Shown one piece after another: positions 11,793 through 63,736 of a stretch of DNA of 64,000 nt; the first letter of the stretch is position 1, and every line of letters starts with the position of its first letter. Source of the DNA: a virus (taxonomy: Duplodnaviria > Heunggongvirae > Uroviricota > Caudoviricetes); the IMG/VR virus record IMGVR_UViG_3300028887_000066, positions 243,550 through 307,549 of that record, one strand, 5' to 3'. The notes below the pieces were generated by a model that worked only from the letters and a program-made list of their open reading frames with translations, had not been told where the DNA came from and did not search any database. The position numbers were made by a program, and so were the translations under genes.

Positions 11793-11798
11793 GTTTTG

Positions 11799-11870: not shown

Positions 11871-11885
11871 TTTAACATTGTTTAG

Positions 11886-11972: not shown

Positions 11973-11980
11973 ATATATTG

Positions 11981-19245: not shown

Positions 19246-19258
19246 TGGATATAAAAAA

Positions 19259-42650: not shown

Positions 42651-44006
42651 TCACTCAATGGTTATACCTATCTTTTTCACGTACTCAGCAACAAGCTTTT
42701 TCATGAACTGTTCACCATTGAATCCCGCTTCAAGGAACTTGAGCAAGTATGGGCTGTATCCTGACATAAAGACGTTACCATCCTTATCCACCTCAGGACA
42801 GGTCTTATTCCTTGAATTCAGATTCCACCAAACAATTTTCGTCTTAAAGCCGTTTTGTTGGAAGATGCGCATTGTCTCGTCCTTTGACTGTTTTGAACCA
42901 CAGTCAAATTCCATGTCACTGAGGACGACCAACCACTCAGGGGCGTTTTTAGCATCAAGACCCTTCAACAGACGCATTACAGCCGCAAAATCTGTATTAC
43001 TGCAATCACCCGTGTACATCGAGGCAATTTCGCGCTCATATTGGTTCTTGCAATGGCTAAGATTCTGACGATGCGTCCTTACACCCCATCCATAAGAAGT
43101 AACCTCATTTTCGACACCAAGCTCAAGCAATTGAGGATTGGACGAGAAAGAGACCACCTTGTTAGGTGCATATGTAGAACACTTTGAAAGGTAATGCCCG
43201 ATAGCAATAGCCTTTCCATAGGAATCATTACCATCCTGCATAGAGCCTGACGAGTCGATAACAGGAATCCAACTTCCACTGATTTTCTCTATCTTGTCGA
43301 AGAAAAGATCTGGATCAATCTTAGTACGATTCTTATAGATGTCATACACGGTCGTAGTGGAAATCTTCATTTCCTTCTTGCCATCCTTGACATCGGCAAG
43401 GTACTTCTCAAAACGGGCCTTTGTATCCTCCTTTTTGAGGAAACGCTGATAATATTTGATCAACGCAAGCGAAGGAACATGCTCGAACTCAATTTCCTCT
43501 GTGTTCTTACGGGATAATTTGTTTTCCACGGTATCACACTTGATGAACTTGCCATACTGCTGCTTATTCATACCCCAATACTTTGCAATCTCACGGGCGA
43601 CCATCAGATTCTTTGAGGAATAACGTGGCATCCACTTCTTAGCAAGCTCATTACCCTTCTTGATTTCATCCTTCAAGTAATCAAGTGCCTCATTAAAAGC
43701 TGCCGTACCATGAAACATAGTCCAAACATCATCAAAACGTCCTGCCAACACCATATCAGTAATGGAGACATGCGCCTGCTTCATCAATTCACGTCCAAGG
43801 TCACGCTTTCCAAGACCGTATCGTGGGTCACGGACAAACATTGCGAATGCCTTTTCAAAAGCTGACGTACCTATACGTACCTCATCAACATGCTTCTGAA
43901 AATACTCTGTCATAAACAGCAAGTCCAACAGTGGATTCAATGTAGACTTGTAGGAAACATCACCGTTTTCTGTCAACTTCTGGTTGAAAATTTCTTCTAA
44001 ATTCAT
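42651..44006 (-). CDS. von Willebrand factor A (MIDAS) domain protein, DUF2828-like
   Basis: MIDAS motif VIDSSGSM (DxSxS) around residue 250. Confidence 0.65.
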   Translation of the reverse strand: MNLEEIFNQKLTENGDVSYKSTLNPLLDLLFMTEYFQKHVDEVRIGTSAFEKAFAMFVRDPRYGLGKRDLGRELMKQAHVSITDMVLAGRFDDVWTMFHGTAAFNEALDYLKDEIKKGNELAKKWMPRYSSKNLMVAREIAKYWGMNKQQYGKFIKCDTVENKLSRKNTEEIEFEHVPSLALIKYYQRFLKKEDTKARFEKYLADVKDGKKEMKISTTTVYDIYKNRTKIDPDLFFDKIEKISGSWIPVIDSSGSMQDGNDSYGKAIAIGHYLSKCSTYAPNKVVSFSSNPQLLELGVENEVTSYGWGVRTHRQNLSHCKNQYEREIASMYTGDCSNTDFAAVMRLLKGLDAKNAPEWLVVLSDMEFDCGSKQSKDETMRIFQQNGFKTKIVWWNLNSRNKTCPEVDKDGNVFMSGYSPYLLKFLEAGFNGEQFMKKLVAEYVKKIGITIE

Positions 44007-44047
44007 ATTCTCTGACTTTTTAGCAAGGTTATTATTTCAAATTAACA

Positions 44048-44085
44048 CTGCAAAGATACGACTATTTTTTGAATTGGCCAAATAA
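44048..44085 (-). promoter_or_regulatory. Bacteroidetes-type promoter (TTTGGCCAA..20 nt..TATCTTTG) for 42651-44006
   Basis: caaagata 44051-44058 and ttggccaaa 44075-44082. Confidence 0.65.
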
Positions 44086-44101
44086 AACGATAAAAATATT
44101 A

Positions 44102-44725
44102 TCAATCCCACCAATAATCAGTATATCGCTCCCTCACTTTGTAATATATATGTCGTGCTTTTGCCATATAATATTCATGATCATAGTTTCCGCTTTTGAA
44201 AATATTAGACTCTAACAGGGCTTTATTTAAGAAACGCTTTGCATTCCTCTTATTCACATATGGGCCGTCATAGCGATAAATTAATTTATCTGTCTTTATT
44301 TCAGAAAGACCCATATTTGAATCACCTACCTGTTTCACAGGCCCATACTCAACGTTCCCGTCATAATGGAAATAATCTGTTTCATTATTGAGTACATGAA
44401 TGCAATGTTTCGCCCATTTCAAGGAACGCATAATTTCATTATATTGCTCATCAACCATTAGCTGATGATGCTTAAACCAATGCAATTGTTTATCTATTTG
44501 CCTCTCTTCAAGCTCAAGAATGAAACCCCCATCCCAAGGATATGTCACAAACGCTTGTTTGATCAATCTCCAATGATACTTATTGAAATTACAATAGAAC
44601 CAATGATACATTGTTCTGTATGCCGACTTTGGTTTATCCCAAATGTACCATAGTATATTGTCGTCTATCCAATCACATACCTTGTTGGACTTACATTTTT
44701 TGTACCACCAATCGCTTATTTTCAT
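44102..44725 (-). CDS. Trp-rich hypothetical protein (207 aa)
   Basis: ORF. Confidence 0.55.
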   Translation of the reverse strand: MKISDWWYKKCKSNKVCDWIDDNILWYIWDKPKSAYRTMYHWFYCNFNKYHWRLIKQAFVTYPWDGGFILELEERQIDKQLHWFKHHQLMVDEQYNEIMRSLKWAKHCIHVLNNETDYFHYDGNVEYGPVKQVGDSNMGLSEIKTDKLIYRYDGPYVNKRNAKRFLNKALLESNIFKSGNYDHEYYMAKARHIYYKVRERYTDYWWD

Positions 44726-44844
44726 AAAATTTAATCTTTTTTAGTGTATGTAACGACTTTACGGCTTAATGCCACACAAACAATCACCAATCCGAGCCAA
44801 TGCCAAAAATCAGTGAAGAAAAATTCGCATAAATATTTTGCTAT
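44710..44844 (-). CDS. small hydrophobic ORF (about 44 aa) missed by the 60-aa track
   Basis: MEIAKYLCEFFFTDFWHWLGLVIVCVALSRKV..; its stop overlaps the downstream start. Confidence 0.3.
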
Positions 44845-44853
44845 TTCCATAAT

Positions 44854-45651
44854 TTATCTTTTTGGTATAATGTTCAATTGATCAAAATATTCGTTAGTAA
44901 ACAATTCAGCATAATGGGCTTTCCATATGCTCCTTTCATATGAAACAGGTTCACCTTTTATTGTCGTGTTAAATGTTTCTGTTTCCTTGTATACGATACG
45001 CCCGTACTTCTTTCCATTATCCAACGCATTCCAATCGACATCCTTCTCATTGTTCAACAATTCAATTTGTTCATCGGCTTTCAAACCCACAAGTCTTTTA
45101 TGCGGAAGATATGTCTGTGCAGTCTGTTGTTTTGAATTACGCAGACAATCGTTCTGTCGATAAAGCAACCACGCAAATACGTCATTATATGTCGGTACTG
45201 TCCATACTTTGCAATCAAATTGTACAATAGGTTCAGATGCTATGATTTGTTTCAAATCATTATTTGAACATGGGACATTACATACTCTAAGTATGTTTAA
45301 TTGATTAAACTTAGCCGTTGCCAATGACGCTATTATCGACTGCATCTTACATAGTCTGAAACCGAAAAATGAATCACTTTCAGGTGTGTCAAAATCGGTA
45401 ATTACAAGACTAATCTCATCAGACTGTACATACGCTGTCTTACAGCCCTGTATTTCCTTACAAAGATATTCAGCCGTCTCATTCATCATACGGATAAATT
45501 CATCGTCAAACGGACGTTCAAAACGCTTTTTGACAAGTTTTGAAAATGAGCGTCCATCAATATGTGCCAGTACATACGAATTTGGCGTAAGTCTATAATC
45601 ATAGATGGATTTATAATACTCCATCCTTTCCTTTAGATTATTAAATTGCAT
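44854..45651 (-). CDS. Thg1-like protein (tRNA-His guanylyltransferase family, 3'-5' nucleotide addition)
   Basis: YVLAHIDGRSFSKLVKKRFERPFDDEFIRMM .. AYVQSDEISLV .. LATAKFN match Thg1 catalytic blocks (RIDGRxF, SDE); start refined to Met at 45651. Confidence 0.8.
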   Translation of the reverse strand: MQFNNLKERMEYYKSIYDYRLTPNSYVLAHIDGRSFSKLVKKRFERPFDDEFIRMMNETAEYLCKEIQGCKTAYVQSDEISLVITDFDTPESDSFFGFRLCKMQSIIASLATAKFNQLNILRVCNVPCSNNDLKQIIASEPIVQFDCKVWTVPTYNDVFAWLLYRQNDCLRNSKQQTAQTYLPHKRLVGLKADEQIELLNNEKDVDWNALDNGKKYGRIVYKETETFNTTIKGEPVSYERSIWKAHYAELFTNEYFDQLNIIPKR

Positions 45652-45753
45652 ATGTTTTTTAATTAATACATTGCAAATATACGGCAAAAAAATAGAACCA
45701 CCAAAATATTTCATTGATGGTTCTATCCATGATTATGAAAAAAGTAAAAAACA

Positions 45754-47628
45754 TTAAACCTCTTCTGCTTTCTGAGTACCCCCTGTAAATCCTGAGAAAA
45801 TATCATTCAGGGGATTTCCATCACCTTGTGGATTACTTCCTTGATACATCTTCTGGGTAATCGGATACCAAGTTTGCTCAAGCTCTTTCTGACAAGTTTC
45901 TACAAGACTGACATCTTTTGCCTCAATCGCCTTCTTTAAAGCCTCAATCTTTGGTGTAAGAGTGTTCTTATCATCATCGGTAAGTTTATCACCCATTTCC
46001 TCCATAGATTTTTCAATAGCAAAAATCAAACCGTCAGCATTGTTTAGTTTATCGGCGTTTTCCTTCTTTTTTCTGTCAGCCTCCGCATTTGCCTCTGCTT
46101 CAGCTTTCATACGCTCGATTTCTTCATCGGTAATACTGCTTTTTGATTCAATAGTGATATGCTGTTCCTTATTAGTCGCTTTATCAACAGCAGTTACACT
46201 CAAAACCCCATTAACATCCATATCAAAAGTGACTTCAATCTGAGGCACACCTTTTCTTGCGGGAGCAATCCCATCAAGATTAAAAATACCTATTGTTTTG
46301 TTGTCTACGGCCATTGGACGATTGCCTTGTAGTACCTTTATTTGTACACCTGGCTGATTATCCTGTGCTGTACTGAAAGTTTGTGATTTTTTGGTAGGTA
46401 TCGTTGTATTAGCCTCAATGATGTTCGTCATAACACCCCCTATTGTCTCGATGCCTAAATTCAATGGTGTCACATCAAGTAACAAAACATCCTTATTATC
46501 ACCAGCGATAATTGAACCTTGAACCGCAGCACCAAGAGCTACAATCTCATCAGGATTGACATTTTTAATAAGCTGAACCCCAAATTCCTTCGTGAGCATT
46601 TCCTGAACATAAGGAATTCGTGTAGAACCACCTACGAGAATAATACCAGTAAGTTCATTCGCCATAATGCCTGAATTTGATAAAGCTGTTTTACCACAAC
46701 CTATAACCTTTTTGATTTCATTTGAAATGAGTTTTTCAAATTTGGCACGTGTAACACTGATATTCAAATGCTGTGGAACCCCGTCTTTAGCGGTAATGTA
46801 TGGAATATTAATATCTGTTGTGGTACTATTTGAAAGCTCCATTTTAGCTTTTTCAGCGGCCTCCACGACACGTGTCATTGCCATAGGATCAACAGAAAGG
46901 TCGATACCTGTATCACTTTTAAATGAATTAACAATGTCGTCACACAAAAGCTTAGTAAGGTCTGAACCTCCACAATACACATCACCATACGAACTCAATA
47001 TCTCAACAACACCATCAGAAATGTCGGCAATGGAGAAATCCAATGTTGAGCCACCGTAATCGGCAACCATATATTTACCACCTTTAGCCATATCAATGCC
47101 AGAAGCAAGAATTGCCGCTGTAGGTTCTGCGACGATACGACGTACATTTAGTCCAGCAATTTGACCAGCTTTAATGGTGGCTTCACGTGCTTCATTATCG
47201 AACATAGCAGGTACGGTAATAACAGCCTCTGTAACCTCCTCCCCAAGATAATCTTCTGCTGTCTTCTTTAATTTTTGAAGTATCATTGCGGAAATTTCTT
47301 CAGGGGAATACTCCCTATCACCAATTGCAATTCTTGGGTAGCCATTAACGTTTTTCACATCATACTCAATATGAGCGAAATTGTCTTTTACATTCTCATA
47401 AGTACCACCCATGAAACGTTTAATAAGAACTACTGTATTCTTGGGGTTGGTGATTGCTTGACGTTGTGCCGAAGCCCCGACCTTGCGTGTTCCGTCTTTA
47501 TCAAAAAATACTACAGACGGAGTTGTCCTATTTCCTTCATCATTGACAATAATCACTGGGCTATTACCCTCCATTACAGAGACTTCGCTAAGGGTACTAC
47601 CCAAATCAATTCCAATAATCTTTCCCAT
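45754..47628 (-). CDS. dnaK: Hsp70 chaperone DnaK
   Basis: [18 protein letters not shown] .. [11 protein letters not shown] .. full-length 624 aa with a C-terminal EEV-like tail. Confidence 0.95.
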
Positions 47629-48597: not shown

Positions 48598-49327
48598 TTT
48601 CTCCGATTATCAATTCTTTCGCATATGGCAAACTTTCAACCCACTTACAGAATTCACCCCAATCTTCCTTCAGCTTATGATGCTTTCTTTGATGGTACAT
48701 TGTCTGCAACTGTTTATAGTTCGTCGATACCCGCACAAACAATTCAGCACCCATAGGGCAATTGGAAATAATGAGCATGAATGCCGTATATACAGTATCC
48801 TCGTATCCGATGGTCTTAATAGAATTCTCGCCATTCTTGAACTCCCAACTTGAAGGTCTGAATTCGACTATATGGTTATATTGATTTACAAGCGTCTGCA
48901 TCGTCTGTATGTTACTGTTCAAGACATACTTATTGCAACACTTGCTGAAATTCATCTTCGTAATCCTATGCATCATTGATGATGACGACACATAATCAAA
49001 CCAATGATAACGCTGCATCTGCTTTGTGATATATTGGCTGTATTTCATATCAACAGATACTCTGATTCCTGTCAGATAGTTATCATGACACTTAACATTC
49101 TTGCTATTATTACTTGCCTCTACAAGTTTTTTTGCCCTGTCAAGACTTTTTTCAAACTCTTCATCAGTATATTCTACAGGTTCAAGTCTCATCGCATTCC
49201 TACATGCGATTACAGATTCCTTGAGATCATATACTTTTGTATTTCTAAACTCTAACATGTAAACATTTGTTTTTCTATTTTTTATAAACATTAGCCCCGA
49301 CTCCGCCAAGAATAACAAATTCAGCAT
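48587..49327 (-). CDS. hypothetical protein (246 aa)
   Basis: ORF. Confidence 0.55.
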   Translation of the reverse strand: MLNLLFLAESGLMFIKNRKTNVYMLEFRNTKVYDLKESVIACRNAMRLEPVEYTDEEFEKSLDRAKKLVEASNNSKNVKCHDNYLTGIRVSVDMKYSQYITKQMQRYHWFDYVSSSSMMHRITKMNFSKCCNKYVLNSNIQTMQTLVNQYNHIVEFRPSSWEFKNGENSIKTIGYEDTVYTAFMLIISNCPMGAELFVRVSTNYKQLQTMYHQRKHHKLKEDWGEFCKWVESLPYAKELIIGENDA

Positions 49328-50384
49328 TTTTGAAATCGGACAATGTTTTACTATTGGTATAGCTCATCGAACTCCTTAAATAGGAGTCCATATTCTCAAT
49401 CCAATGTGACACAGGATACTTAACCTCAACGGGTTTGCAAATACCTTCAGACACTTTTGATCCGTCACCTCCCGTAATCATTTGCATTGAGCGGTGCGAC
49501 ATACCAGAATACATCCTATAAGGCGTAAGTGTATCCTTTATTGATACATCAAGATTGTATAATTCATCAGGGAAATATCCGATGTCTAAAGTAAAATCTT
49601 CTTCTGACATACAATATAGGACTTTGCCACAAGCTTCTTCACACTCAGCAAATAATTTCCCTATCATTACGGCATCAGCACCTAATGCAAGAGCTTTATT
49701 GATGTCATCATACCATTCAATTCCGCCGTCCAATATAATTTTAGTATACTCGCAATGGCAATCCTTGTCAAACTTAATGTATTTTTTCTTTTCTTCTATT
49801 AACTCATCCACCAACGATGCGGCAGGAAAATGAATACCTAACGCACAACTACTTGTGCATCTACTACCGCCACCGATAGAAACACGTATCCAATCCACAC
49901 AAGCTTCACATAATTCACTGTAAATGTGAGGATTAGCAATATTACCCGTCATAACCTCCACTCTTTCGCCATATGAATTCTTAATACGTTTACACACATT
50001 AAGAAGTTTCCTCATATGCCCATTTGCAAGATCAATACAGATGTATTTCTTTTCAAAACCCGTATCCTCATATTCTGAGAATTCTTCTGCTTCAGATAAT
50101 GACAAAGATACAAATGTTTCATCGGCAAGGTTAATTCTCTCTTCCAAGCTAAGTCTCTGTTGAACTGAACGTGGGATAACGGGTGTTAATTTGTTCTCTA
50201 TCCATTTAGTATAATTGAATTCGTCAGTAACAGCCGCCATCGGAGCCACAAAAATAGGATAGCTTTCTCTCCCACAAATTTTCGTGAATGGGTTTACGTC
50301 TTTTCTGCTATCGATTTCTGTAATACTCGCAGGGATAATAGCCACATCTTTCAGGCTATAGCAAATTTTGTTCAATTTACTCAT
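49275..50384 (-). CDS. IMP dehydrogenase/GMP reductase family protein (GuaC-like, no CBS domains)
   Basis: ICIDLANGH, GNIANPHIYSELCEACVDWIRVSIGGGSRCTSS (catalytic Cys loop), ILDGGIEWYDDINKALALGADAVMIG. Confidence 0.75.
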   Translation of the reverse strand: MSKLNKICYSLKDVAIIPASITEIDSRKDVNPFTKICGRESYPIFVAPMAAVTDEFNYTKWIENKLTPVIPRSVQQRLSLEERINLADETFVSLSLSEAEEFSEYEDTGFEKKYICIDLANGHMRKLLNVCKRIKNSYGERVEVMTGNIANPHIYSELCEACVDWIRVSIGGGSRCTSSCALGIHFPAASLVDELIEEKKKYIKFDKDCHCEYTKIILDGGIEWYDDINKALALGADAVMIGKLFAECEEACGKVLYCMSEEDFTLDIGYFPDELYNLDVSIKDTLTPYRMYSGMSHRSMQMITGGDGSKVSEGICKPVEVKYPVSHWIENMDSYLRSSMSYTNSKTLSDFKNAEFVILGGVGANVYKK

Positions 50385-50475
50385 TTCTGTATAAATTTCA
50401 ATCAAAATAAATATACAAAAAATTAGGGATACACAATACTGCATACCCCTTTAATGACTTTCTCTGATCAATGAT

Positions 50476-51308: not shown

Positions 51309-52010
51309 TTAACTTTTTTTCATATCGAATATGATAGGACTATAAGCAACTTCGTATTTTTCATTAAGTATCGATGCATTAGCTATTTTAATTCCTTCAT
51401 ATTCTGTTATTTTTTTAAGAGGCGAAGAATGAATATGCCCAAAAAACACGTATTTTGGTTTCCTGTCCAACACGTATTTAGCAAGTACCTCATTTCCAAA
51501 ATTCCTACCATTTACGTCGCCTTCAGTAGCCATTCCACCATTTAAAATATCAGGGGCATCGTGTGTAACAAGAATGTCAAGCCCATATGGTATGAAATCA
51601 TAGTATCTCTCCAAATTATCCCGTGTAAACGGCCATCTTGGTAAAGGTTTACAATATGGGCAACCAAAAATCTTATATACTACGCCATCATTCTTGAAAT
51701 CAAATTCCTCATTATCAAGATATATGAGACGGTTATCCTTAATATTTGAAAGCCATTCGTTTTTCTGTTTGTTGCTAATTCCTTCCAAGAAAAACGAATG
51801 ATTTCCCGCTATCATTACTACCTTAGATTCAGAATTCCTATATGGCAATTTATTTATCCAATCAGAGAATGTGGTATTTAGCCATTCTTTATGAAACTGT
51901 CTGCTCTGATTCCATACAGGTTCGCCATCACCACACATGATCAAAAGATCAAATTCTTCTTTAATTGGTATCAAATTTCCATGTAAATCACTTATTACAA
52001 TAACTTTCAT
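51309..52010 (-). CDS. calcineurin-like metallophosphoesterase
   Basis: VISDLHGN, MCGDGE, AGNHSF, GHIH motifs. Confidence 0.85.
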   Translation of the reverse strand: MKVIVISDLHGNLIPIKEEFDLLIMCGDGEPVWNQSRQFHKEWLNTTFSDWINKLPYRNSESKVVMIAGNHSFFLEGISNKQKNEWLSNIKDNRLIYLDNEEFDFKNDGVVYKIFGCPYCKPLPRWPFTRDNLERYYDFIPYGLDILVTHDAPDILNGGMATEGDVNGRNFGNEVLAKYVLDRKPKYVFFGHIHSSPLKKITEYEGIKIANASILNEKYEVAYSPIIFDMKKS

Positions 52011-52035
52011 ATCCTAAATATACAGAAAATACGTT

Positions 52036-52329
52036 TTAGTATTCAATAGTGTAAAGTATGTCACCGAATGAGGTCTCTCCTCTCCTGATATACTTTCCAT
52101 CAATATTAAACATTATCATCCCATAAGGAGATTCACCAAAACGTATATACTTGTTAGAATCGATATTACCGACTATTCTTCCATAGCCTGACTCACCTTC
52201 CCTAATACGGTTAGAGGAATCGATGTTGTATAATATTTGACCATACGGTGAAAACCCTCTTCTGATGTATTTTCCATCAAAATTATAGGAAATGTTTCCG
52301 TAGCCTCCTTGTCCTTCTCTGATAATCAT
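52036..52329 (-). CDS. tandem-repeat protein (4 x ~24-aa G-x-S/G-x-Y-G-x-I-x-x-N-I-D-x-x-x-Y-I-R-x-G-E repeats)
   Basis: Repeats visible directly in the translation. Confidence 0.55.
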   Translation of the reverse strand: MIIREGQGGYGNISYNFDGKYIRRGFSPYGQILYNIDSSNRIREGESGYGRIVGNIDSNKYIRFGESPYGMIMFNIDGKYIRRGETSFGDILYTIEY

Positions 52330-52349
52330 ATTTTTTACTTTTAATTACA

Positions 52350-52387
52350 ATGCAAAGATAAGACAATTATTTCAAACGGCCAAATCA
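52350..52387 (-). promoter_or_regulatory. Bacteroidetes-type promoter (TTTGGCCGT..20 nt..TATCTTTG) for 52036-52329
   Basis: caaagata 52353-52360 and cggccaaa 52377-52384. Confidence 0.6.
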
Positions 52388-52855
52388 CCAACAGTCAAAA
52401 TCGGTAATATCGGCGGTTTCTCCGCATATATTACATTTACAATGCACAACATTTCCAAGACCTGTACCCATAAACGAAACAACAGTTCCACCACCTATCG
52501 CACCACGATTTACACCTTCATGACGATGGTTTTCACAGAACTTCAAATAACGGGCATATTCGACCCTAGAAAGCTTATATCCGTATTTGCAGTGTGATTC
52601 ATAATGCTTCTCGAAATTCTCTATGCCATTAGTATCTTCCTCTGTTATCTTTTCGTAGTCAAACGGATCCTTCAAAACCTCATTAGGTTCTTTTCTTACA
52701 AGTTTCTCTTTAATGTAACTCTCATCGACTATGGCAACACCATAACCTCCATTATACATTGCCAATTTATTCTCATCGATCCATATAGCCTTATCACCAT
52801 TATGACAAAGATATACATCACCAAACTGAGCATTTTCAAAAATGTCTTTTTCCAT
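52385..52855 (-). CDS. hypothetical protein with C-terminal Cys cluster
   Basis: ORF. Confidence 0.5.
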   Translation of the reverse strand: MEKDIFENAQFGDVYLCHNGDKAIWIDENKLAMYNGGYGVAIVDESYIKEKLVRKEPNEVLKDPFDYEKITEEDTNGIENFEKHYESHCKYGYKLSRVEYARYLKFCENHRHEGVNRGAIGGGTVVSFMGTGLGNVVHCKCNICGETADITDFDCW

Positions 52856-52861
52856 ATTTTC

Positions 52862-53353
52862 CTAACTATTAAAATTCTGAGTCCATTCCTGACTAAACCA
52901 AACATTATCTGGTATGCCGCCGAAACGTTTTCCCGCCTCCTTGAACATATTTATCAATTCGCGCCCTGTGTAACCGCACAATGTCTTTTCATTCGGCTGA
53001 TTACGGTATGCCACCTTGAATTTCATATTCGGATTTTCTTTGGCACATACATACATGTCAACGATGTTTCTTACAATTGTTTCCTGATCAATGCTTGGGC
53101 GGTAGTTTTTGGTGAGGTCTGTTGTCGGTAGAGCGTATGAATTACCGACTAAACCCTTTCCAACGCCATACTTTGCTCCAAAATACTTATGCGCCGCTGC
53201 TGCTGAACCAGCACCATGACGACCTTCAGGATTACTACCGAACACGAAAATCGTATCGGCGGATGGGCTTATATTGCCTGTATATGTATTCATTTTCAAT
53301 ATTTTTTTAAAGTTACAAAAATTATTCCAATTGTTTAGCGGTTTCAGGGTCAT
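52862..53353 (-). CDS. hypothetical protein with Gly-rich Rossmann-like N-terminus (FVFGSNPEGRHGAGSAAAA)
   Basis: ORF; family not recognised. Confidence 0.5.
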   Translation of the reverse strand: MTLKPLNNWNNFCNFKKILKMNTYTGNISPSADTIFVFGSNPEGRHGAGSAAAAHKYFGAKYGVGKGLVGNSYALPTTDLTKNYRPSIDQETIVRNIVDMYVCAKENPNMKFKVAYRNQPNEKTLCGYTGRELINMFKEAGKRFGGIPDNVWFSQEWTQNFNS

Positions 53354-54002
53354 ATTTTTTATACAACTCTGTCATCCACCACTTAGTTTTGAACTTTACT
53401 TTCGGAAGTCTTTGCCCTTTCATCAACGTTGTGCGTCGGCAAACGACCCCTTCTTTTACATTAGGGTATTGGCAACCTTCCTGAGTCCAGTCATTGTCCT
53501 GAATCGACTTTATAAAGTCTTTTGTTAATTTTCCTCTGTATATCAGTTCTGGTTGTATTATTTCCTTATGTGAATAAAACAGCTCAATTAGGGGTTTAAA
53601 CTCGATATATCCTTTCTTTTTCAAAAATACATCTATCAATGCCAGCCTAAGTTCATCACCGTCTTCATGAAAACCTGCAAAGGAATGGTCTCCATACCAC
53701 TCAAAATAGAATGTGACTTCATCAATGCCATTAAACAGACCCTTCTTTCCTGAATTTTCGGTGACTATTCTTGAAAGCAGGTCAGGGTAGCATGAATTAT
53801 TAAACCATTTAACGGCATCACCAAATTGTTCATCATTTTCATCAAATACTCGCTTACGCGACCCAAACTGTTCAAACGCTTTCCTTTTCGGAGAATATTT
53901 TATGCACACGTTCTGTCCGTCAAGCTTATTGAATGCAGCTATTTCTTCTCCAAGTAATGTTCCATCGTCTTGTATTCTGTTTATACTATCGTAATGCTTC
54001 AT
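53322..54002 (-). CDS. ATP-dependent RNA ligase, Rnl2-like nucleotidyltransferase domain only
   Basis: Motif I FNKLDGQNVCIKY (KxDGxN), motif III-like FYFEWYG, motif IV EGVVCR, motif V KVKFKTK. Confidence 0.7.
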   Translation of the reverse strand: MKHYDSINRIQDDGTLLGEEIAAFNKLDGQNVCIKYSPKRKAFEQFGSRKRVFDENDEQFGDAVKWFNNSCYPDLLSRIVTENSGKKGLFNGIDEVTFYFEWYGDHSFAGFHEDGDELRLALIDVFLKKKGYIEFKPLIELFYSHKEIIQPELIYRGKLTKDFIKSIQDNDWTQEGCQYPNVKEGVVCRRTTLMKGQRLPKVKFKTKWWMTELYKKYDPETAKQLE

Positions 54003-54945
54003 TTTTAAAAGTCCCCTCAATTCTTTTATAGTATTCTGCGTATTTTTCAGATTTGACTATATCTCTAGTCCGCCTTGCAACCCCATAGTCAATATCTATT
54101 ACATCACTAAATGTATGTGTTTCATCCATAATGTAAATTCTTTGGGACAAAAATAACGCCTCAGAAATATCATGCGTTATCATTATAAATGTCCTGTCTA
54201 TTTTTTGATCATAGAATATCTTGAGGAGAATGTCCTGCATTGCAGCCTTTGATGCGATGTCCAATCCTGAAGAATATTCGTCAAGCACAAGAATTTGTGA
54301 ATCGGATGCCAAAGACCTTGCCAATGCGACGCGCTGTAATTGACCTCCTGACAATGGTGGCATTTTTGCCCATTTATCTTCGTGTCCCTTCAACCCCACC
54401 AGATCAATAAGCTCTAATGCTTTCTCTTTTGCCACCTTTTTGTCAATGCCTTTCATCTTCATAGGAAGCATTACATTTTCTAACACACTCATCCATTCAA
54501 AAGACGAATACTGCTGAAATACCGTAGGCACAAACGTTTTGTCAGTATATGGCTTACCATACATCAATACCTCCCCTTCATTTGGCTTTGTCAAACCTGA
54601 TATAATACGACTTAACTGTGTCTTTCCTGAGCCTGATTTACCCATAATGGTAATAAACTGTCCCATACCCTTAAAATCAGGTATCCTAAAATTAAGTTTA
54701 TCAAAAAGTGTGAAATTACCAAACTTTAAAGTAATGTCTTTCAGATTAATGACATCCAACGGCTCACACTCATAAATTCCGTCCATGACAGCTTTTTCAT
54801 TGTTTTCCTCGACAGTTGTAGGCTCAGTATTATTTTGCGCCTCAGAAGGCTTTAAAATGGCTCCTGCGATACTTTCAGATGTGTTATCAACCGTGGATAC
54901 CTTCGTATTTTCAGGTTCCTTGAACAATGTATCAAATTTTCCCAT
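53986..54945 (-). CDS. ABC transporter ATP-binding protein (NitT/TauT-like)
   Basis: Walker A GKSGSGKT, signature LSGGQLQRVALARSL, Walker B ILVLDE. Confidence 0.9.
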   Translation of the reverse strand: MGKFDTLFKEPENTKVSTVDNTSESIAGAILKPSEAQNNTEPTTVEENNEKAVMDGIYECEPLDVINLKDITLKFGNFTLFDKLNFRIPDFKGMGQFITIMGKSGSGKTQLSRIISGLTKPNEGEVLMYGKPYTDKTFVPTVFQQYSSFEWMSVLENVMLPMKMKGIDKKVAKEKALELIDLVGLKGHEDKWAKMPPLSGGQLQRVALARSLASDSQILVLDEYSSGLDIASKAAMQDILLKIFYDQKIDRTFIMITHDISEALFLSQRIYIMDETHTFSDVIDIDYGVARRTRDIVKSEKYAEYYKRIEGTFKNEALR

Positions 54946-54951
54946 AAATTA

Positions 54952-55785
54952 TTATTTATTATACTTGAATGGAAACAGTTTTTTTGAGAAATAAGTAAAC
55001 GCCATATCTTGTAGCGTACCAATTATGATGATTATAAACAAAAGAGCGAATGCTTCTGCCATGTACGATTGCCGTATCATCGTGTTTATCAATGCGCCGA
55101 TTCCGCTAATCGAACCATCTTTATATATCATTTCAGCGATAACCACATATGTATAACTGATCGCCGTCAAATTTATAATATCATTTACTATCCCGCTTGT
55201 TACATATGGAAAATATACATAGCGGAATTTTTGCCACTTATTAGCCCCTAATGTTTGTATTGTTTGTAGATAAACATTATCCTTAACATTACTTGGGTTT
55301 TGTAGGTCGTTAATTTTATTTACCACAGTAGGTATAATATAAATCATAATGGCCACGGTAAGAAACCACGTCTTCATTTCAAATGTCAGTCCCCAAATAA
55401 CGATAAAAATACTTGAAACCGCAGGTAATGGCAAAAATCTTACGCTGTTTATACTTTTTCCAAATAAGATATTGTTAATTGGGTATAATGCCAAGAAAAA
55501 GCCTATCGGTAAAGACAATAGGATGGCATAAACATAACACATAAGGTTAAGTTTTACCGTAAACCAAATATTAGCAAATAAATGATTATCAGTGATAAGA
55601 CCACCAATCGATGTAATTACATTAAACGGGTCTGGAAGCACCTTAGGTGAAACCAATTCAAATGCTGCAATAAAATGCCATAGCATAATGATGATGGTGA
55701 AACCGATAACAGTAATAATGCTGTTATTCAATACACCAAAATCACTATCCCCACCAAATTTGAAGAGTTTTTTGAACAAATTCAT
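54952..55785 (-). CDS. ABC transporter permease
   Basis: Six TM helices, binding-protein-dependent permease topology. Confidence 0.8.
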   Translation of the reverse strand: MNLFKKLFKFGGDSDFGVLNNSIITVIGFTIIIMLWHFIAAFELVSPKVLPDPFNVITSIGGLITDNHLFANIWFTVKLNLMCYVYAILLSLPIGFFLALYPINNILFGKSINSVRFLPLPAVSSIFIVIWGLTFEMKTWFLTVAIMIYIIPTVVNKINDLQNPSNVKDNVYLQTIQTLGANKWQKFRYVYFPYVTSGIVNDIINLTAISYTYVVIAEMIYKDGSISGIGALINTMIRQSYMAEAFALLFIIIIIGTLQDMAFTYFSKKLFPFKYNK

Positions 55786-55982
55786 TATTTATTTCTATTG
55801 ATTAAAATTGTTTCGCCACAATTAGGGCAGTTTATCGAATCTTTGACAACCGTTTCTCTTGCTATTCTGTTAACAAGTTCTTGATCATGTTCATTTATTA
55901 ACGACGACCATAATACAACGGTTATAAATGCCATTACTAAAACTAATAGGATACCTCCTATAACCTGAAACACTGTTTTCAT
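55785..55982 (-). CDS. small membrane protein with CxxC zinc-ribbon
   Basis: TM helix + CPNCGE. Confidence 0.4.
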   Translation of the reverse strand: MKTVFQVIGGILLVLVMAFITVVLWSSLINEHDQELVNRIARETVVKDSINCPNCGETILINRNK

Positions 55983-56054
55983 ATTTTGGAAAATTTGAGG
56001 GAGATGCTTACAATACCCTGAAAAACACCTCCCTCTTTATTATTTATGGAAAAC

Positions 56055-57584
56055 CTATTCGCTCACTAACTGGAAGTCTGTTGTACGATAGTTTTGGTTA
56101 TCACCTACTACACCATCTTCGATAGCTTTCTTCGGGCCGTTTCCTATGATGATAAAACGATTTGCATCAAACCCGTATTCTCTGATGAGGTAATTAGCTA
56201 CTGCCTGCGCACGGCGTTTTGAAAGCTCTACGTTATAGGCTTGATTGCCCGTATTGTCAGTATTTCCAACAATTTTAACACGAGAACCTGCAAACTGCTT
56301 CGCTATGCCAACGAACTCTCTGTCAATAAGTGTTTTCGCATCGTTACTAAGCAAGTCACTATTAACACCAAACTCGATGGTAAGCTTCTTATCGGAAATA
56401 ACCTCCTTATTCACTATTTCCTCTGTAACGGCTGTAAACTTAACACTTGTTTCCGCATCCTGATTACCCTGCACCAATTCAGTATCGCCATCTAATGCCT
56501 CAATAATAGCTGAATTAGACACCTTGCGCCAAGACAAAGGCTTTTTACACAGCCCAAGACCTTCATATGTACGTGCCATTTTAGAATATAGTTCATCGCC
56601 CTTAATACCCGTGTATGAACTATTCAAACCGAAGAAATTAAGTTCATCACCCAATGTGGCATAACGGATATTTTTACTTCCCTCTACGGCAAACTCTGTA
56701 TCAGTACCATATGCCTTTGCAAAAGCGTCTGCTGCAAAATTCACCGCATTTTCATCTGTATTCATCAAATTATTGGCATAAAGCAATGCAGCAACAAGCT
56801 TCTTCAACTTATCCGAATTGTTATCGATGTATGTTTGTTTTGCAATAAGACAGTCACAAATAATATTTGAAGCTTGCTTTGTCGATACAAGTACCTTTGC
56901 TCCAGCAATAGATGCTACGATGTCTTGATCATCGGGAGAAAACACCACTGCCGCATCACATTGTCCAGACTTAAACACTTGTGCCGCATCAAGTCCGCTT
57001 GCTACAACCTTAATATTCACTTTGTCGTTCTTAACACCTTCTCCTGTATTTACCTTGTCATACCCAATACCATTTGTCTCCAAGGTATTCAAGAGCAATG
57101 TATGGGAGGCGGTTCCTTCAGAGCAAGCCACAACCTTACCGATCAAATCACCTACTGTAGAAATATTCTTATTTACTACGATGGCATCCGCTCCACGAGA
57201 CCAATTTGACAGATTAAACAAACGCGCATCAGCCATATCAGAACCCTCACTCATTTCTACAGGTAAGGCATCCGCCGTACAATACAGGACATCAATGTCT
57301 CCATTTCTAAATGCGGCTCGACCTGCCTGAAAATCATCCTGTACAAGAATCTTCAACTTGATTCCGTAGTTCTTGTAGATATAAGAATCCTCATTCGGCT
57401 CAAGTCCGTTGTTTAGATACATGAACGGCATAAAGCCTGCATACGTATTAGTTCCAACGACAATCACGTCCTTATCAGAACTACCACCAAAACCTGTGTA
57501 CTTGGAAATGCCGAAAACGGCTCCTGCAACAATGATAACAATAAGGGCAATCTTTACCCAAGGTCTAACAATCATCTTTGCCAT
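56055..57584 (-). CDS. fusion protein: N-terminal TM anchor, NMT1/TauA-like ABC substrate-binding domain, C-terminal OmpA/MotB peptidoglycan-binding domain
   Basis: C-terminal NTDNTGNQAYNVELSKRRAQAVANYLI is the OmpA-like motif; the central region resembles periplasmic sulfonate/nitrate binding proteins. Confidence 0.7.
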   Translation of the reverse strand: MAKMIVRPWVKIALIVIIVAGAVFGISKYTGFGGSSDKDVIVVGTNTYAGFMPFMYLNNGLEPNEDSYIYKNYGIKLKILVQDDFQAGRAAFRNGDIDVLYCTADALPVEMSEGSDMADARLFNLSNWSRGADAIVVNKNISTVGDLIGKVVACSEGTASHTLLLNTLETNGIGYDKVNTGEGVKNDKVNIKVVASGLDAAQVFKSGQCDAAVVFSPDDQDIVASIAGAKVLVSTKQASNIICDCLIAKQTYIDNNSDKLKKLVAALLYANNLMNTDENAVNFAADAFAKAYGTDTEFAVEGSKNIRYATLGDELNFFGLNSSYTGIKGDELYSKMARTYEGLGLCKKPLSWRKVSNSAIIEALDGDTELVQGNQDAETSVKFTAVTEEIVNKEVISDKKLTIEFGVNSDLLSNDAKTLIDREFVGIAKQFAGSRVKIVGNTDNTGNQAYNVELSKRRAQAVANYLIREYGFDANRFIIIGNGPKKAIEDGVVGDNQNYRTTDFQLVSE

Positions 57585-59983: not shown

Positions 59984-60181
59984 TTAATTTTGTTTATTGT
60001 TAAATTTTTCACATATCTCTCCAAAAGGTAAATTCCATATATCAGTGTTACTTAATAGCCATTCACATATTTCGTGGGAGTATTTTGAATCACCAAATGT
60101 ATGAATAATATCATAGCACAAATCAAAGTTTATACCATATTTGACACAATATTGCACTGTGATTTCATTATAGCCATTCAT
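59984..60181 (-). CDS. hypothetical small protein (65 aa)
   Basis: ORF. Confidence 0.4.
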   Translation of the reverse strand: MNGYNEITVQYCVKYGINFDLCYDIIHTFGDSKYSHEICEWLLSNTDIWNLPFGEICEKFNNKQN

Positions 60182-61044
60182 AGTTTTTTCTGTATTTCAC
60201 GCACATAATCAATGTGTTCCTGAGACATTGGGACACCTGTGAAATTCACATGCAAGAATGCCTCAATTACGTCCTCATCGGTAGTTCCCTCTTCCATTTC
60301 ACCATAAGTAAGCACCTGACTGTTTCTGAAAAGATGCTGTGCGCGATCGGATAAATCAGAATAGTAGTTTCCGTGCATATCCTGGAATTTATCATTAACA
60401 AAGTCAATTATACACCCAAGACGCTGTTTTCCATCGACCACATCAAAGAAACCAACCTCTGAATTTCCATTCTTACACTGTTCCTCCACATACTTAAATG
60501 AACGTTTACGAAGAAGTACCATTCCACAATTTATGGATTGATAAACACTTTCAATGAATAACTGCTTATCTTTCAGTGTCCAACAGAAATCACGCTGATA
60601 GTATAGCTTCTCACCGTTTTTCAAAACATATGGGTTAAAATTACATTCACATGGGCAAATTCCGTTAATTTCGTACTTTTCAGCCTTTCTTCCGACACGG
60701 CCTGATGCCCCAATAAAAAGCATAATACCCTCAAGGTCATAATTGGTGGTGCGAATACGTCTATTCCAAGCCCTATCAGGAAACGGATTAGCCCCAACAT
60801 TAAACAATGAACGTTCAATCTGTGTCTTATCAAGAATAATATCATTAACTTTCCAATAGTCATGAGTTTTCCAATTCACGACAAATTTCCCATCAGGTAA
60901 TATCTTCTTAATGGTGATGTATTCTTTACGGTCAGGATCTCTCGCCAAATCGTCAAGAAAACCACACTTTGTAGTGGCTTCATCACCGACTTTCCATTCT
61001 TTTTCAAGAAATGCCTTAACCATTTCATCTTTCTTCTTTGCCAT
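60178..61044 (-). CDS. DUF262/ParB-like nuclease domain protein (DGQQR-type motif VVDGKQRLG)
   Basis: VVDGKQRLGCIIDF in the C-terminal half; start refined to Met at 61044 because the promoter lies at 61075-61112. Confidence 0.5.
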   Translation of the reverse strand: MAKKKDEMVKAFLEKEWKVGDEATTKCGFLDDLARDPDRKEYITIKKILPDGKFVVNWKTHDYWKVNDIILDKTQIERSLFNVGANPFPDRAWNRRIRTTNYDLEGIMLFIGASGRVGRKAEKYEINGICPCECNFNPYVLKNGEKLYYQRDFCWTLKDKQLFIESVYQSINCGMVLLRKRSFKYVEEQCKNGNSEVGFFDVVDGKQRLGCIIDFVNDKFQDMHGNYYSDLSDRAQHLFRNSQVLTYGEMEEGTTDEDVIEAFLHVNFTGVPMSQEHIDYVREIQKKL

Positions 61045-61631: not shown

Positions 61632-62075
61632 TTATTTTAGCAATTCAGGATTATCGTACATGTTTCCCTCTACAACGGCATCCATTTCATCAAGCCACTT
61701 TTGATCAATAGTCTGCCAAATATCCCAAGACTCATCCAACTCAAAAACATTAGCCATCTTGAAACCTCCCTTATTGGGAAGATATTTTACGATTTTCAAC
61801 AACTTTTGCCCGTCGCTTAATACAACGGAAATAATATCCCCGTCATATATCTTAACGAAATTTTTATCAGTTAGCTCCGATAGCATTCCAACTGTGTCAC
61901 TTAACACTTCATATTTTAACCCTGTATTGGTAATAATTACGCCCTTGCCGTCAACTCCCACAATTGGCTGATAATAGCCATAACAAAATGAAAACGAACC
62001 ATCATTATTAGCATAGACGAATTTGCCTCTTACGGTGGGTATGAATTTTTTAAATATATCTGTACTTTTCATCAC
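61632..62075 (-). CDS. hypothetical protein (147 aa)
   Basis: ORF. Confidence 0.5.
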   Translation of the reverse strand: MMKSTDIFKKFIPTVRGKFVYANNDGSFSFCYGYYQPIVGVDGKGVIITNTGLKYEVLSDTVGMLSELTDKNFVKIYDGDIISVVLSDGQKLLKIVKYLPNKGGFKMANVFELDESWDIWQTIDQKWLDEMDAVVEGNMYDNPELLK

Positions 62076-62674
62076 CTGTACAATTTTTCTTCCTTGATCA
62101 AATTATCTATTTCTTTGCAAGTATAAACAGACACATCTTCACCGCTCTTTGCCATTTCCCTTATCTTGGTGGAATGTATTGTGACGGGTTCCTCTATCTT
62201 CAATGTTCCGTAATAATAATTAGAGTATCTTACGGCTTCACATATGTCGTTTCCGTCAAATAAAATTAAGAATTTATTAGACCTCAGCAACTCTTTTGAT
62301 TTAAACCACTTATCATCCAAAAGTTCCAAAAATGTCTCTTCAGTTATTATCCACCAAAATTTATGACCTATCATTTTATCCTCGCCACGAAGAAAATGAG
62401 TAATAAGGTCATAAGTATATTTTGGTCGGATAGTCGCTTCAATATCGTCAACCAACACATTCTCGGAAAGCCCAGAAAACATGTATCGGCACATCTGATA
62501 CCTTTTCCAAAAATCCAAACTTTCAGATTTATTAGGATTCTGATATGCAGGTATGATATGAATATGGTCTATCCCACAAAAATCCATCATGCCACTATTC
62601 AAAACCGCTTCAATACACTTTCTATGTCCTATATGAGGCGGATTAAAACTACCTAAGAATATTGCCCTGCTCAT
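62072..62674 (-). CDS. nicotinate/nicotinamide mononucleotide adenylyltransferase (NadD/NMNAT-like)
   Basis: LGSFNPPHIGH (HxGH nucleotidyltransferase motif) and TIHSTKIRE (ISSTxIR motif). Confidence 0.8.
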   Translation of the reverse strand: MSRAIFLGSFNPPHIGHRKCIEAVLNSGMMDFCGIDHIHIIPAYQNPNKSESLDFWKRYQMCRYMFSGLSENVLVDDIEATIRPKYTYDLITHFLRGEDKMIGHKFWWIITEETFLELLDDKWFKSKELLRSNKFLILFDGNDICEAVRYSNYYYGTLKIEEPVTIHSTKIREMAKSGEDVSVYTCKEIDNLIKEEKLYR

Positions 62675-62997
62675 CCTTCCAACATTTTATTAAGTTCATC
62701 GGCATTTCCGCACCATCCCAGCCCATTCAAACCAAGATAATACGCGCCAAGGTAAAAATCAAATGAATCCAGGTCAAACTTGTTAAGCTGTGGATGGAAT
62801 CTGTATTTAGTGTGGCATACAGGACATTCAAAAATAGCCATAAAGCCGTTATATGTTTCACACCATCCAACAAGCAACGGTTTCTCACCGTGTTTTACTC
62901 CACTGCCATTGCACTCAGGACATACGAACTCAGGGGCATATTCAATATCCTCCCACTGGCTTATCTTCGGTATAATGTCAATAACCTTCTTTTCCAT
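62671..62997 (-). CDS. small zinc-binding protein (CPEC .. CPVC)
   Basis: ORF downstream of the promoter at 63020-63057. Confidence 0.5.
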   Translation of the reverse strand: MEKKVIDIIPKISQWEDIEYAPEFVCPECNGSGVKHGEKPLLVGWCETYNGFMAIFECPVCHTKYRFHPQLNKFDLDSFDFYLGAYYLGLNGLGWCGNADELNKMLEG

Positions 62998-63019
62998 AAT
63001 TTATTTCTTTTTAATTACA

Positions 63020-63057
63020 TTGCAAATATAAGATTAATTTTTCATTTGGCCAAACTA
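63020..63057 (-). promoter_or_regulatory. Bacteroidetes-type promoter (TTTGGCCAA..20 nt..TATATTTG)
   Basis: caaatata 63023-63030 and ttggccaaa 63046-63054. Confidence 0.65.
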
Positions 63058-63106
63058 ATATACATAAAAATGAGCATTCATCCATGCGACAAATGCCCAT
63101 TTAGCC

Positions 63107-63736
63107 TTAGAAAACCGTGTACCAAATTTCAAGCAATTTTTGTTTCCATTTCGGATATGCATATTTCAATATACTCTTTTCATGTCCGAATGCCCATTCA
63201 TACTTTTTAACTTGATTTACAGGTATCCATTTAATATCCTGTACTTCATTTTTCTCTCCGCCTCTTCCATCATCCCAATCATCGAGATTAGGCCCAAGTA
63301 CATATTGGTGTTTTTTACCAAGAAATACCGTATGATGAATAGTCACATTACCGTTATTGCATTCAGAAGGTTCTGTTTGAACAAATACTGCCTTAAATCT
63401 TTCAGGTGGAATAACTTCGACGCATTCCTCCATTGTCTCGCGGGCGATCCCTTGACGTGAATTTTCATTTCTTTCAAGAAAACCACACGGACAGTTCCAA
63501 TAACCTTGAAAATCTGGAGTTCCGCTGCCACGACGATTAGCAAGGACACAATATTTACCGTTTACAACGGCATAAATAAACCCTGCCACAGCACAATACC
63601 TGCCATCATATAATGTTATTGTTTTATCCTTAGGCACGATAAAACTATCATCGTGACATTCAACGGCATTAATGTCGAATGCCTTATATGGTTTATTTCT
63701 CTCCATCATCCAATCTGTTTTAATAGATATGCACAT
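63107..63736 (-). CDS. NUDIX hydrolase
   Basis: Nudix box GFLERNENSRQGIARETMEECVEV. Confidence 0.8.
   Translation of the reverse strand: MCISIKTDWMMERNKPYKAFDINAVECHDDSFIVPKDKTITLYDGRYCAVAGFIYAVVNGKYCVLANRRGSGTPDFQGYWNCPCGFLERNENSRQGIARETMEECVEVIPPERFKAVFVQTEPSECNNGNVTIHHTVFLGKKHQYVLGPNLDDWDDGRGGEKNEVQDIKWIPVNQVKKYEWAFGHEKSILKYAYPKWKQKLLEIWYTVF

Follow-up and report, generated by a model that had tools for sequence, protein, structure and literature searches.

A catalytic-domain-only RNA-ligase-type nucleotidyltransferase of a Lak-like megaphage and its RNA-repair neighbourhood

Does a phage protein that consists of a ligase catalytic domain alone seal broken RNA, and does a phosphoesterase encoded close to it prepare the broken ends? 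The question is raised by a 64,000-nt stretch of the IMG/VR virus record IMGVR_UViG_3300028887_000066 (positions 243,550 to 307,549; Caudoviricetes), hereafter the window, in which a ligase gene (53322-54002) and a metallophosphoesterase gene (51309-52010) both lie on the minus strand. An earlier note, made from the letters of the DNA, read the two as parts of a phage tRNA-repair toolkit in which the phosphoesterase supplies end healing as in bacterial Pnkp. In our analysis, the ligase appears from its sequence and predicted structure to be a real, catalytically intact RNA-ligase-type nucleotidyltransferase without a C-terminal domain. We put the probability at about 0.6 that it is an ATP-dependent, Lys26-AMP-forming enzyme that seals 3′-OH/5′-phosphate breaks in RNA.

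The ligase open reading frame (ORF) measures 681 nt, i.e., 226 codons and a stop. The length of 232 aa given earlier results from an upstream TTG start at 54020, which we rejected because nearly all of the 120 homologues listed are 224-228 aa long and because all 30 sequences of the ligase alignment A1 start with methionine at the ATG and share Y4. The motifs of the covalent nucleotidyltransferase superfamily follow one another in order on a nucleotidyltransferase (NTase) fold: motif I (KxDG) is K26-L-D-G-Q-N, with K26 the predicted adenylylated lysine, followed by motif Ia (S48-R49), motif III (F-E101-W-Y-G104), motif IIIa (L-I-D124-V), motif IV (E184-G-V-V-C-R) and motif V (KxK; K201-V-K203-F-K205). 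Motifs I, III, IV and V had already been read from the sequence, and we located all four. Pfam PF09414 (RNA_ligase) matches residues 20-198 (E = 1.1e-7; 32.6 bits against a cut-off of 27), and the 'RNA ligase' profile phrog_548 is covered from position 3 to 229 of its 341 positions (E = 1.5e-13). The chain ends at residue 226, 21 residues past motif V, leaving phrog_548 positions 230-341 unmatched, and the AlphaFold2 model (pLDDT 93, pTM 0.88) is a single compact domain. The earlier statement that the protein has no C-terminal domain is borne out by these three observations.

A Foldseek search with the model placed T4 Rnl2 and REL1 at the top (E of about 1e-8), followed by Rnl1, Rnl3 and Rnl5. 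In both structure searches, RNA ligases outranked DNA ligases and capping enzymes. Neither of the folds that the earlier note had named as speaking against an RNA ligase, that of a capping enzyme or that of a DNA ligase, was found. No NCBIfam model matched the ligase, and a PDB search with the single sequence gave no match. A profile built from divergent homologues matched the Rnl3 enzymes 8uce (E = 9.5e-4) and 2vug (E = 6.6e-3) and also REL1 (E = 8e-3), all weakly, and lined up motifs I, III, IIIa and IV with the two Rnl3 enzymes. We discarded as spurious a match of the close-homologue profile to the respiratory syncytial virus fusion protein (E = 0.46). Across 68 divergent ligase sequences, which are 27-39% identical to the query, the residues K26, D28, G29, E101, G104, H112, E184, G185, K203 and K205 are invariant, and R49, an SFAG segment and D124 are nearly so. 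This is the pattern of conservation expected of an active enzyme.

The catalytic-domain-only form is shared by a large branch. An exhaustive HMMER search (E ≤ 1e-3) recovered 457 clusters of relatives at 50% identity, and since nearly all of them are 195-228 aa long, we regard this form as the norm of the branch and not as a truncation. ORFs 60% identical to the ligase occur in 15/15 Prevotella phage Lak-A/B/C genomes; at 25-35% identity, ORFs are found in Xanthomonas phage XacN1 and in four further huge phages from metagenomes. The XacN1 homologue is presumably one of the 'three Rnl2 paralogues' in the survey by Iyer et al. taken up below. One of the homologue clusters, P0119, is the NCBI entry 'RNA ligase [Wendovervirus sonii]', i.e., the Lak megaphage Sonny, so the name RNA ligase has already been given to the Lak orthologue and no such label is new here. 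From the 60% identity to the Lak-A/B/C ORFs and the presence of Sonny among the homologues, we conclude that the window belongs to a Lak-like Prevotella megaphage and that the ligase is the Lak-megaphage representative of this branch of Pfam RNA_ligase. A megablast of 48-58 kb of the window against phage records returned no match. In bacteria and archaea, family members occur in WWE3 and Paceibacterota (candidate phyla radiation), Alphaproteobacteria, Planctomycetes, Chloroflexota, Leptospiraceae and Woesearchaeota. For a locus scan, the divergent alignment A2 proved too variable, and a sub-alignment (A3) took its place.

The architecture sets this protein apart from the RNA ligases that have been characterised. 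Each of the six characterised families, Rnl1 to Rnl6, is defined by a module fused to the NTase domain, and this flanking module contributes to step 1 or step 2 of the reaction (PMC7261155). The NTase domain of Rnl2 (T4 RNA ligase 2, trypanosome REL1) is closely similar to the phage protein, but the signature C-terminal domain of that family is wholly absent from it, and single-sequence similarity is too low for a direct PDB match. Rnl5 (Naegleria gruberi NgrRnl, Deinococcus DraRnl) has an N-terminal OB module that the phage ligase lacks, its motif I lysine being residue 26 already, and PF21189 does not match the phage ligase, unlike the 583-aa ligase encoded by relatives. In NgrRnl the OB module is required for ligase adenylylation; without it, step 1 fails and 4% of the nick-sealing activity is left (PMC7261155). 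Among solved structures, the best profile-to-sequence match is to Rnl3 (Pyrococcus abyssi Pab1020 and the Palaeococcus pacificus RNA ligase), with likeness in the motifs KxDGxNxR, GE..GP.S and EG[IV]V.K. The Rnl3 chains, however, are 389-402 aa long with N-terminal, dimerisation and C-terminal domains, whereas in the 226-aa phage ligase only the NTase motifs align. The phage ligase thus falls outside the architectural definitions of Rnl2, Rnl5 and Rnl3. The designation 'Rnl2-like' in the earlier note is true of the catalytic core and does not extend to membership of Rnl2.

To place the ligase in a genomic context, we used 40 IMG/VR loci with 8 kb on each side of the ligase, together with 11 loci from exact-protein look-ups; the counts given here refer to the 40 IMG/VR loci. 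At least one further RNA-repair gene lies within 8 kb of the ligase in 25/40 loci, corresponding, as we read the neighbour tables, to 18 of the 25 ligase clusters at 85% identity. The most recurrent neighbour families, at 12 loci each, are an HD phosphohydrolase fused to an AAA_33 P-loop kinase (the HD-Pnk architecture) and the 583-aa Rnl5-like ligase (PHA02142 OB domain plus phrog_968). NADAR is found in nine loci, an orthologue of the phosphoesterase 51309-52010 in eight and NAPRTase in seven. RlaP, the CCA-adding enzyme and a second PF09414 ligase (282-301 aa in L010 and L014) occur in four each, a tRNA_lig_CPD-like protein, Thg1 and DUF2828 in three each, and Tpt1 in one. Loci L007 and L008 present a textbook cluster of HD-Pnk (HD plus AAA_33), tRNA_lig_CPD-like protein, CCA-adding enzyme, RlaP and ligase, and L013 combines HD plus AAA_33 with the Rnl5-like ligase. 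In the closest relatives of the window, L036-L040, whose ligase is 84% identical, the string comprises HD-Pnk, a radical SAM protein, a different Metallophos protein, the ligase, the Rnl5-like ligase and a Pol-beta NTase, the last of which has a homologue in the window as well (16358-17116).

We consider these neighbourhoods good guilt-by-association evidence for a role of the ligase in RNA repair, and the RNA-repair island is heavily shuffled between lineages. The toolkit proposed in the earlier note therefore survives in part: the RNA-repair context of the ligase, with HD-Pnk, Rnl5-like ligase, RlaP, CCA-adding enzyme, CPD-like protein, Thg1 and Tpt1 in relatives, is upheld, and the partnership with the phosphoesterase is not.

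Several of these phages encode more than one ligase. The 583-aa Rnl5-like ligase (L013:7485-9236, with homologues in L036-L040, L043, L055, L062, L067-L069 and L074) often adjoins the small ligase, and some Lak-like phages have a third PF09414 ligase of 282-301 aa beside NAPRTase, giving up to three ATP-dependent RNA ligases per phage. We considered a split Rnl5 in which the 583-aa neighbour supplies its OB domain in trans and rejected it, as the neighbour is itself a full ligase, with phrog_968 over residues 170-561. A comparison of the 583-aa protein with the small-ligase family gave no specific profile relationship (hhalign probability 1%).

The data show directly that the gene is real, which fold its product adopts in the model, how strongly the active site is conserved, how large the family is and what surrounds the gene; we infer the RNA substrate, the three-step chemistry, the autonomy of the ligase and every partnership described here. 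By analogy with the classic ligases, Lys26 would attack ATP to form ligase-AMP, the AMP would be transferred to the 5′-phosphate end of the RNA, and the 3′-OH would attack the adenylylated end, sealing the break. Such an enzyme would most probably mend RNA that is broken in the course of infection, whether in tRNA anticodon loops or at nicks in structured RNA. It would do so as part of a fluid phage island whose genes would serve RNA repair and NAD/ADP-ribose counter-defence. Breaks with 3′-OH and 5′-phosphate ends, as made by metal-dependent nucleases, could be sealed directly. Those with 2′,3′-cyclic-phosphate and 5′-OH ends would require healing first, for which the best candidate in the clade is HD-Pnk, with its HD phosphoesterase and P-loop kinase, a protein not encoded in the window.

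A number of points weigh against this interpretation. The immediate neighbours of the ligase in the window are an ABC transporter and a macrodomain protein, not classic repair genes. The search for a 5′-kinase partner, as suggested in the earlier note, found no P-loop 5′-kinase in the 64 kb, Walker A motifs being confined to a UvrD-like helicase and an ABC ATPase, and queries with HD-Pnk likewise found nothing there, nor is there an Rnl5-like ligase in the window. The 5′-OH polynucleotide kinase of a heal-and-seal pathway, such as T4 Pnkp with Rnl1, bacterial Pnkp/Hen1 or HD-Pnk with a ligase, is therefore a feature of the relatives (HD plus AAA_33 in 12/40 loci) and not of the window. Lak-A/B/C phages keep the ligase with no detectable homologue of HD-Pnk, Tpt1 or the phosphoesterase, and the 19 bacterial and archaeal ligase loci have no neighbour common to at least three of them. 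Our literature searches found no characterised natural RNA ligase made of the NTase domain alone and no biochemistry for this branch. Characterised ligases that have been cut back experimentally to the NTase domain are defective; by analogy, a protein that naturally consists of this domain alone may need a partner or may not seal. Finally, similarity of fold cannot prove specificity for RNA over DNA.

The genes around the ligase all lie on the minus strand. An ABC transporter cassette (53986-57584) is found directly upstream, consisting of an NMT1-like substrate-binding protein fused to an OmpA domain (56055-57584), a permease (54952-55785) and an ATPase (53986-54945) that overlaps the ligase start by 17 nt. 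Downstream, 28 nt past the ligase stop, begins a 143-aa protein of the A1S_2505 family with a Macro fold (52862-53293). A longer form of this ORF, reaching to 53353, was rejected because homologues begin at the second ATG, at 53293; with the start there, the macrodomain gene does not overlap the ligase gene, and we also rejected translational coupling of the two by overlap. Next come a 156-aa protein with a cysteine-rich C-terminus (HCKCNICGE...DCW; 52385-52855) and a 97-aa '6-fold beta-flower' repeat protein (52036-52329; PF21786, E = 6.8e-19). The 156-aa protein has no significant match in Pfam, PHROG or NCBIfam and a single homologue, in L072, 8 kb from the ligase of that locus.

From the ligase to a 111-aa ORF at 50476, the intergenic gaps of this string, which includes the phosphoesterase gene, are 28, 6, 55, 25, 4 and 13 nt. 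The first minus-strand terminator-like hairpin downstream of the ligase, a pattern match from a consensus scan, is at 50425-50450, and the same scan found no other minus-strand terminator-like site between 55017 and 50450. Such a tight, terminator-free string would be compatible with co-transcription of ligase and phosphoesterase. A scan for sigma-70 promoters returned 30 sites against 27 expected by chance, with a consensus that is not appropriate for a Bacteroidota host.

Other RNA-repair and nucleotide genes are more dispersed through the window, all on the minus strand. The Tpt1, the Thg1-like enzyme and the tRNA array that had been noted before are all present. Tpt1/KptA, an RNA 2′-phosphotransferase (26511-27026; PF01885, E = 6.2e-44), is the distal member of the putative toolkit; its homologue in L073 is 1.8 kb from the ligase. 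The Thg1-like 3′-5′ nucleotidyltransferase (44854-45714; PF04446, E = 3.8e-26) has homologues near the ligase in L050, L052 and L073. A DUF2828/DUF7788 protein (42651-44006; PF25043, E = 3e-14; PF11443, E = 5e-14), which we take to be TROVE/vWA-like, also has homologues at ligase loci, on the upstream side in L015, L044 and L045 and on the downstream side in L065. The 252-aa Pol-beta-type nucleotidyltransferase at 16358-17116 (PF18765, PF01909, phrog_388) is possibly related to RlaP, a query with which matched it weakly (E = 0.009); its homologues in L036-L040 lie 3.5-4.5 kb downstream of the ligase. A YqeY gene is also found in the window.

The array comprises eight tRNA genes identified by ARAGORN (9534-12054): Cys, two Gln, two Arg, two Glu and one with a CTA anticodon. 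The last (10035-10107; 'Pyl' according to ARAGORN) is an amber suppressor. We rejected recoding of TAG within the window, as TAG terminates 14 of the 77 minus-strand ORFs of at least 90 aa; recoding, if any, would therefore be elsewhere in the genome.

We also noted several further features, all on the minus strand unless stated otherwise. The co-directional run 42651-47628 comprises the DUF2828/DUF7788 protein, a 207-aa ORF, the Thg1-like enzyme and a full-length Hsp70/DnaK (45754-47628; PF00012, E = 1.5e-202). Nucleotide and NAD genes at 62072-63736 and 49275-50444 encode a NadD-like cytidylyltransferase-fold protein, a Nudix hydrolase and an IMPDH/GMP-reductase-like protein. An AMP-binding (acyl/aryl-adenylating) enzyme of 539 aa (13317-14936) and a 97-aa phosphopantetheine-attachment carrier (18988-19281) form an odd pairing for a phage. 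A protein resembling the GmrSD N-terminal domain is encoded at 60178-61044, and a UvrD-type helicase followed by an N6/N4 DNA methyltransferase at 28503-31440. Past the low-coordinate end of the window, two contigs that carry the window gene 951-1706 (L076 and L077) encode a thymidine kinase, a reverse transcriptase (RVT_1), an HD_4 protein and NADAR; this look-up found no additional repair genes.

Macrodomains act on derivatives of ADP-ribose, those arising from Tpt1 among them. Together, the macrodomain gene beside the ligase, the NADAR and NAPRTase genes of related loci and the window's own NadD-like and Nudix genes place the ligase in a neighbourhood that combines RNA repair with NAD/ADP-ribose functions.

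The phosphoesterase (51309-52010, 233 aa) belongs to the calcineurin-type binuclear metallophosphoesterases by its matches to PF00149 (E = 1e-12; 49.3 bits against a threshold of 21.5) and phrog_1649. Its family and its strand agree with the earlier description, as does its distance of about 1.3 kb from the ligase (1,311 nt from the ligase stop to the phosphoesterase start), with three ORFs in between that had gone unmentioned. The metal motifs SDLHG, CGD, AGNH, THD and GHIH are conserved in its orthologues, and the enzyme is predicted to be catalytically intact. MPPED2 is its sole solved sequence relative (3rl4, E = 5.9e-8, residues 47-231), the PDB search giving no match to Pnkp. All of the binuclear-metal motifs are common to the phage protein and the class III metallophosphodiesterases MPPED1 and MPPED2, although MPPED2 is longer (296 aa) and the similarity is low. 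The phosphatase module of Clostridium thermocellum Pnkp and lambda phosphatase fall in the same calcineurin-like superfamily (PF00149). The PPP signature consists of GDxHG, GDxxDRG and GNHE; the phage protein has SDLHG, GDGEP and GNHS in their place, which sets it outside the Pnkp type. Unlike Pnkp, it is neither fused nor adjacent to a kinase or Hen1.

In phage records, homologues of the phosphoesterase are found in crAss-like phages, Flavobacterium phages and a few huge phages, and none is found in Lak-A/B/C; the phyletic distribution of the gene does not follow that of the ligase. The best of these homologues (38% identity) are in crAss-like phages, with no ligase nearby; in crAss-like phage cr1_1 the gene stands amid helicase, primase, Holliday-junction resolvase and exonuclease genes. 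In the ligase loci, orthologues with 31-35% identity follow the ligase on its own strand, 1.6-5.3 kb downstream, in 8/40 loci and also in L010 and L014. The eight loci form one conserved synteny block (6 of the 25 ligase clusters at 85% identity), and the closest relatives of the window, with the 84% identical ligase, have no orthologue within 8 kb. Non-orthologous Metallophos genes near the ligase are of the F14 family (L036-L040, L055), MPE2-like (L043, L045, L074) or of 220 aa (L013). In L071 (11944-13762) the orthologue is split into two ORFs about 1.1 kb apart, suggesting an insertion (mobile element or intron) or a disrupted gene. The window itself encodes a second, unrelated calcineurin-like phosphoesterase of 277 aa (37014-37847, minus strand) beside a family-2 glycosyltransferase (37837-38676). 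In L043, L045 and L074, genes weakly homologous to this second phosphoesterase are situated 1.8-3.9 kb upstream of the ligase.

A partnership between phosphoesterase and ligase is possible but unproven, because the former is near the latter in only 8/40 loci; the link between them is positional, and chance proximity is plausible because Metallophos genes are frequent, with two in this window. One alternative, which we entertain tentatively, is that the phosphoesterase is independent of the ligase and degrades nucleotide or ADP-ribose signals. It would fit the MPPED2-type similarity, as the MPPED family hydrolyses cAMP and cGMP (PMC10547211), and the genomic setting: the macrodomain gene lies two genes upstream, the orthologue travels with NADAR and NAPRTase in L046-type loci, and the NadD-like and Nudix genes are in the same window. 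Iyer et al. predict calcineurin-like phosphodiesterases that counter nucleotide signals. On the other hand, the resemblance to MPPED2 is modest, and the crAss-like homologues are in a DNA-replication context.

The reading proposed in the earlier note, in which the phosphoesterase is a dedicated Pnkp-style partner that heals 2′,3′-cyclic-phosphate or 3′-phosphate ends so that the pair repairs tRNA cut by anticodon nucleases, seems unlikely to us, and the Pnkp likeness itself did not hold up. The shared terminator-free, co-directional string and the recurrence of orthologues downstream of the ligase speak for it, as do the non-orthologous Metallophos genes near the ligase in other lineages and the calcineurin-like phosphatases that Iyer et al. 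report in some jumbo-phage RNA-repair sets. Against it stand the relationship to MPPED2 in place of Pnkp or lambda phosphatase, the absence of the phosphoesterase from Lak-A/B/C and from the vicinity of the ligase in the closest relatives, its best phage homologues in crAss-like replication modules, the density of Metallophos genes, which leaves proximity not clearly above chance, and the lack in the window of a 5′-kinase that would complete healing. Among the relatives, HD-Pnk is the end healer most often encoded near the ligase. Activity of the phosphoesterase as a 2′,3′-cyclic phosphodiesterase or 3′-phosphatase is possible.

The autonomy of the ligase can be questioned more directly. In Runella slithyformis, a cluster of Tpt1, MTase-HIT, ligase and HD-Pnk brings together, like the phage loci, HD-Pnk, an ATP-dependent ligase-like protein and Tpt1; the Runella ligase-like protein self-adenylylates and seals none of the 3′-OH/5′-phosphate substrates tested (PMC6097658). 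The phage window differs in that Tpt1 is 26 kb from the ligase and HD-Pnk is not within it. An NTase-only protein that requires a partner in trans, or that carries out a partial reaction such as 5′-adenylylation of RNA or sealing of pre-adenylylated ends, would agree with the Runella result, with the contributing flanking modules of all six characterised families and with the crippled adenylylation of NgrRnl after deletion of its OB domain. Family-specific invariants outside the classic motifs (H112, the SFAG segment and a WW...LE tail) also hint at extra functions or contacts. We nevertheless think it rather improbable that the ligase depends on a partner or stops short of sealing: no neighbour is conserved across the family, the adjacent 583-aa protein is a complete ligase of its own with no specific profile relationship to it, and the family is large and strongly constrained as a single-domain protein.

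The Runella cluster is at the same time a suggestive parallel that leaves open, by analogy, a 2′-phosphate-dependent, yeast-like pathway split across phage genes. We hypothesize, at low odds, that the NTase-only ligase provides the sealing step of such a yeast- or plant-style pathway. The HD-Pnk kinase and a cyclic phosphodiesterase would produce 5′-phosphate and 3′-OH,2′-phosphate ends, the ligase would seal them, possibly needing the 2′-phosphate, Tpt1 would take off the junction 2′-phosphate with NAD+, and the macrodomain protein encoded directly after the ligase would take off the remaining phosphate. If true, this would tie ligase, macrodomain, phosphoesterase, Tpt1 and NAD-salvage genes together, and the branch without flanking domains would be a seventh, functionally distinct class of RNA ligase.

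That the ligase acts on DNA or RNA-DNA junctions in replication or recombination is very improbable, since in both structure searches every DNA ligase came out below the RNA ligases, the OB domain that all DNA ligases carry (PMC7261155) is missing, and RNA-repair genes dominate among its neighbours.

The idea of a phage RNA-repair kit is already published and is not new here. RNA-repair sets of jumbo phages were described in 2021 (Iyer, Anantharaman, Krishnan, Burroughs and Aravind, Viruses 13:63, PMC7824862); their inventory of parts matches that of the loci studied here, namely ATP-dependent RNA ligases (Rnl1/Rnl2-type), polynucleotide kinases, HD, HAD and calcineurin phosphatases, 2H CPDases, KptA, RlaP, the CCA-adding enzyme, Thg1, TROVE proteins, tRNA arrays and Macro domains. 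The survey puts KptA, 2H and Macro domains in one pathway; in the text consulted, it does not single out the NTase-only architecture. Relative to the sets described there, the composition and order of the Lak-like island are highly fluid.

What the Lak neighbourhoods add is detail: a shuffled island with up to three RNA ligases, HD-Pnk, RlaP, CCA-adding enzyme, Thg1 and Tpt1, which also carries macrodomain, NADAR and NAD-salvage genes. At the level of the protein, the ligase is one of a large natural family without a flanking module, whose members are encoded by giant phages of the gut, by further huge phages and, here and there, by bacteria and archaea. If these proteins are unable to seal RNA alone, a partner or a partial reaction still to be discovered would be implied. 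If they do seal RNA alone, they would be the smallest RNA ligases known, of mechanistic interest and possibly of use as a reagent.

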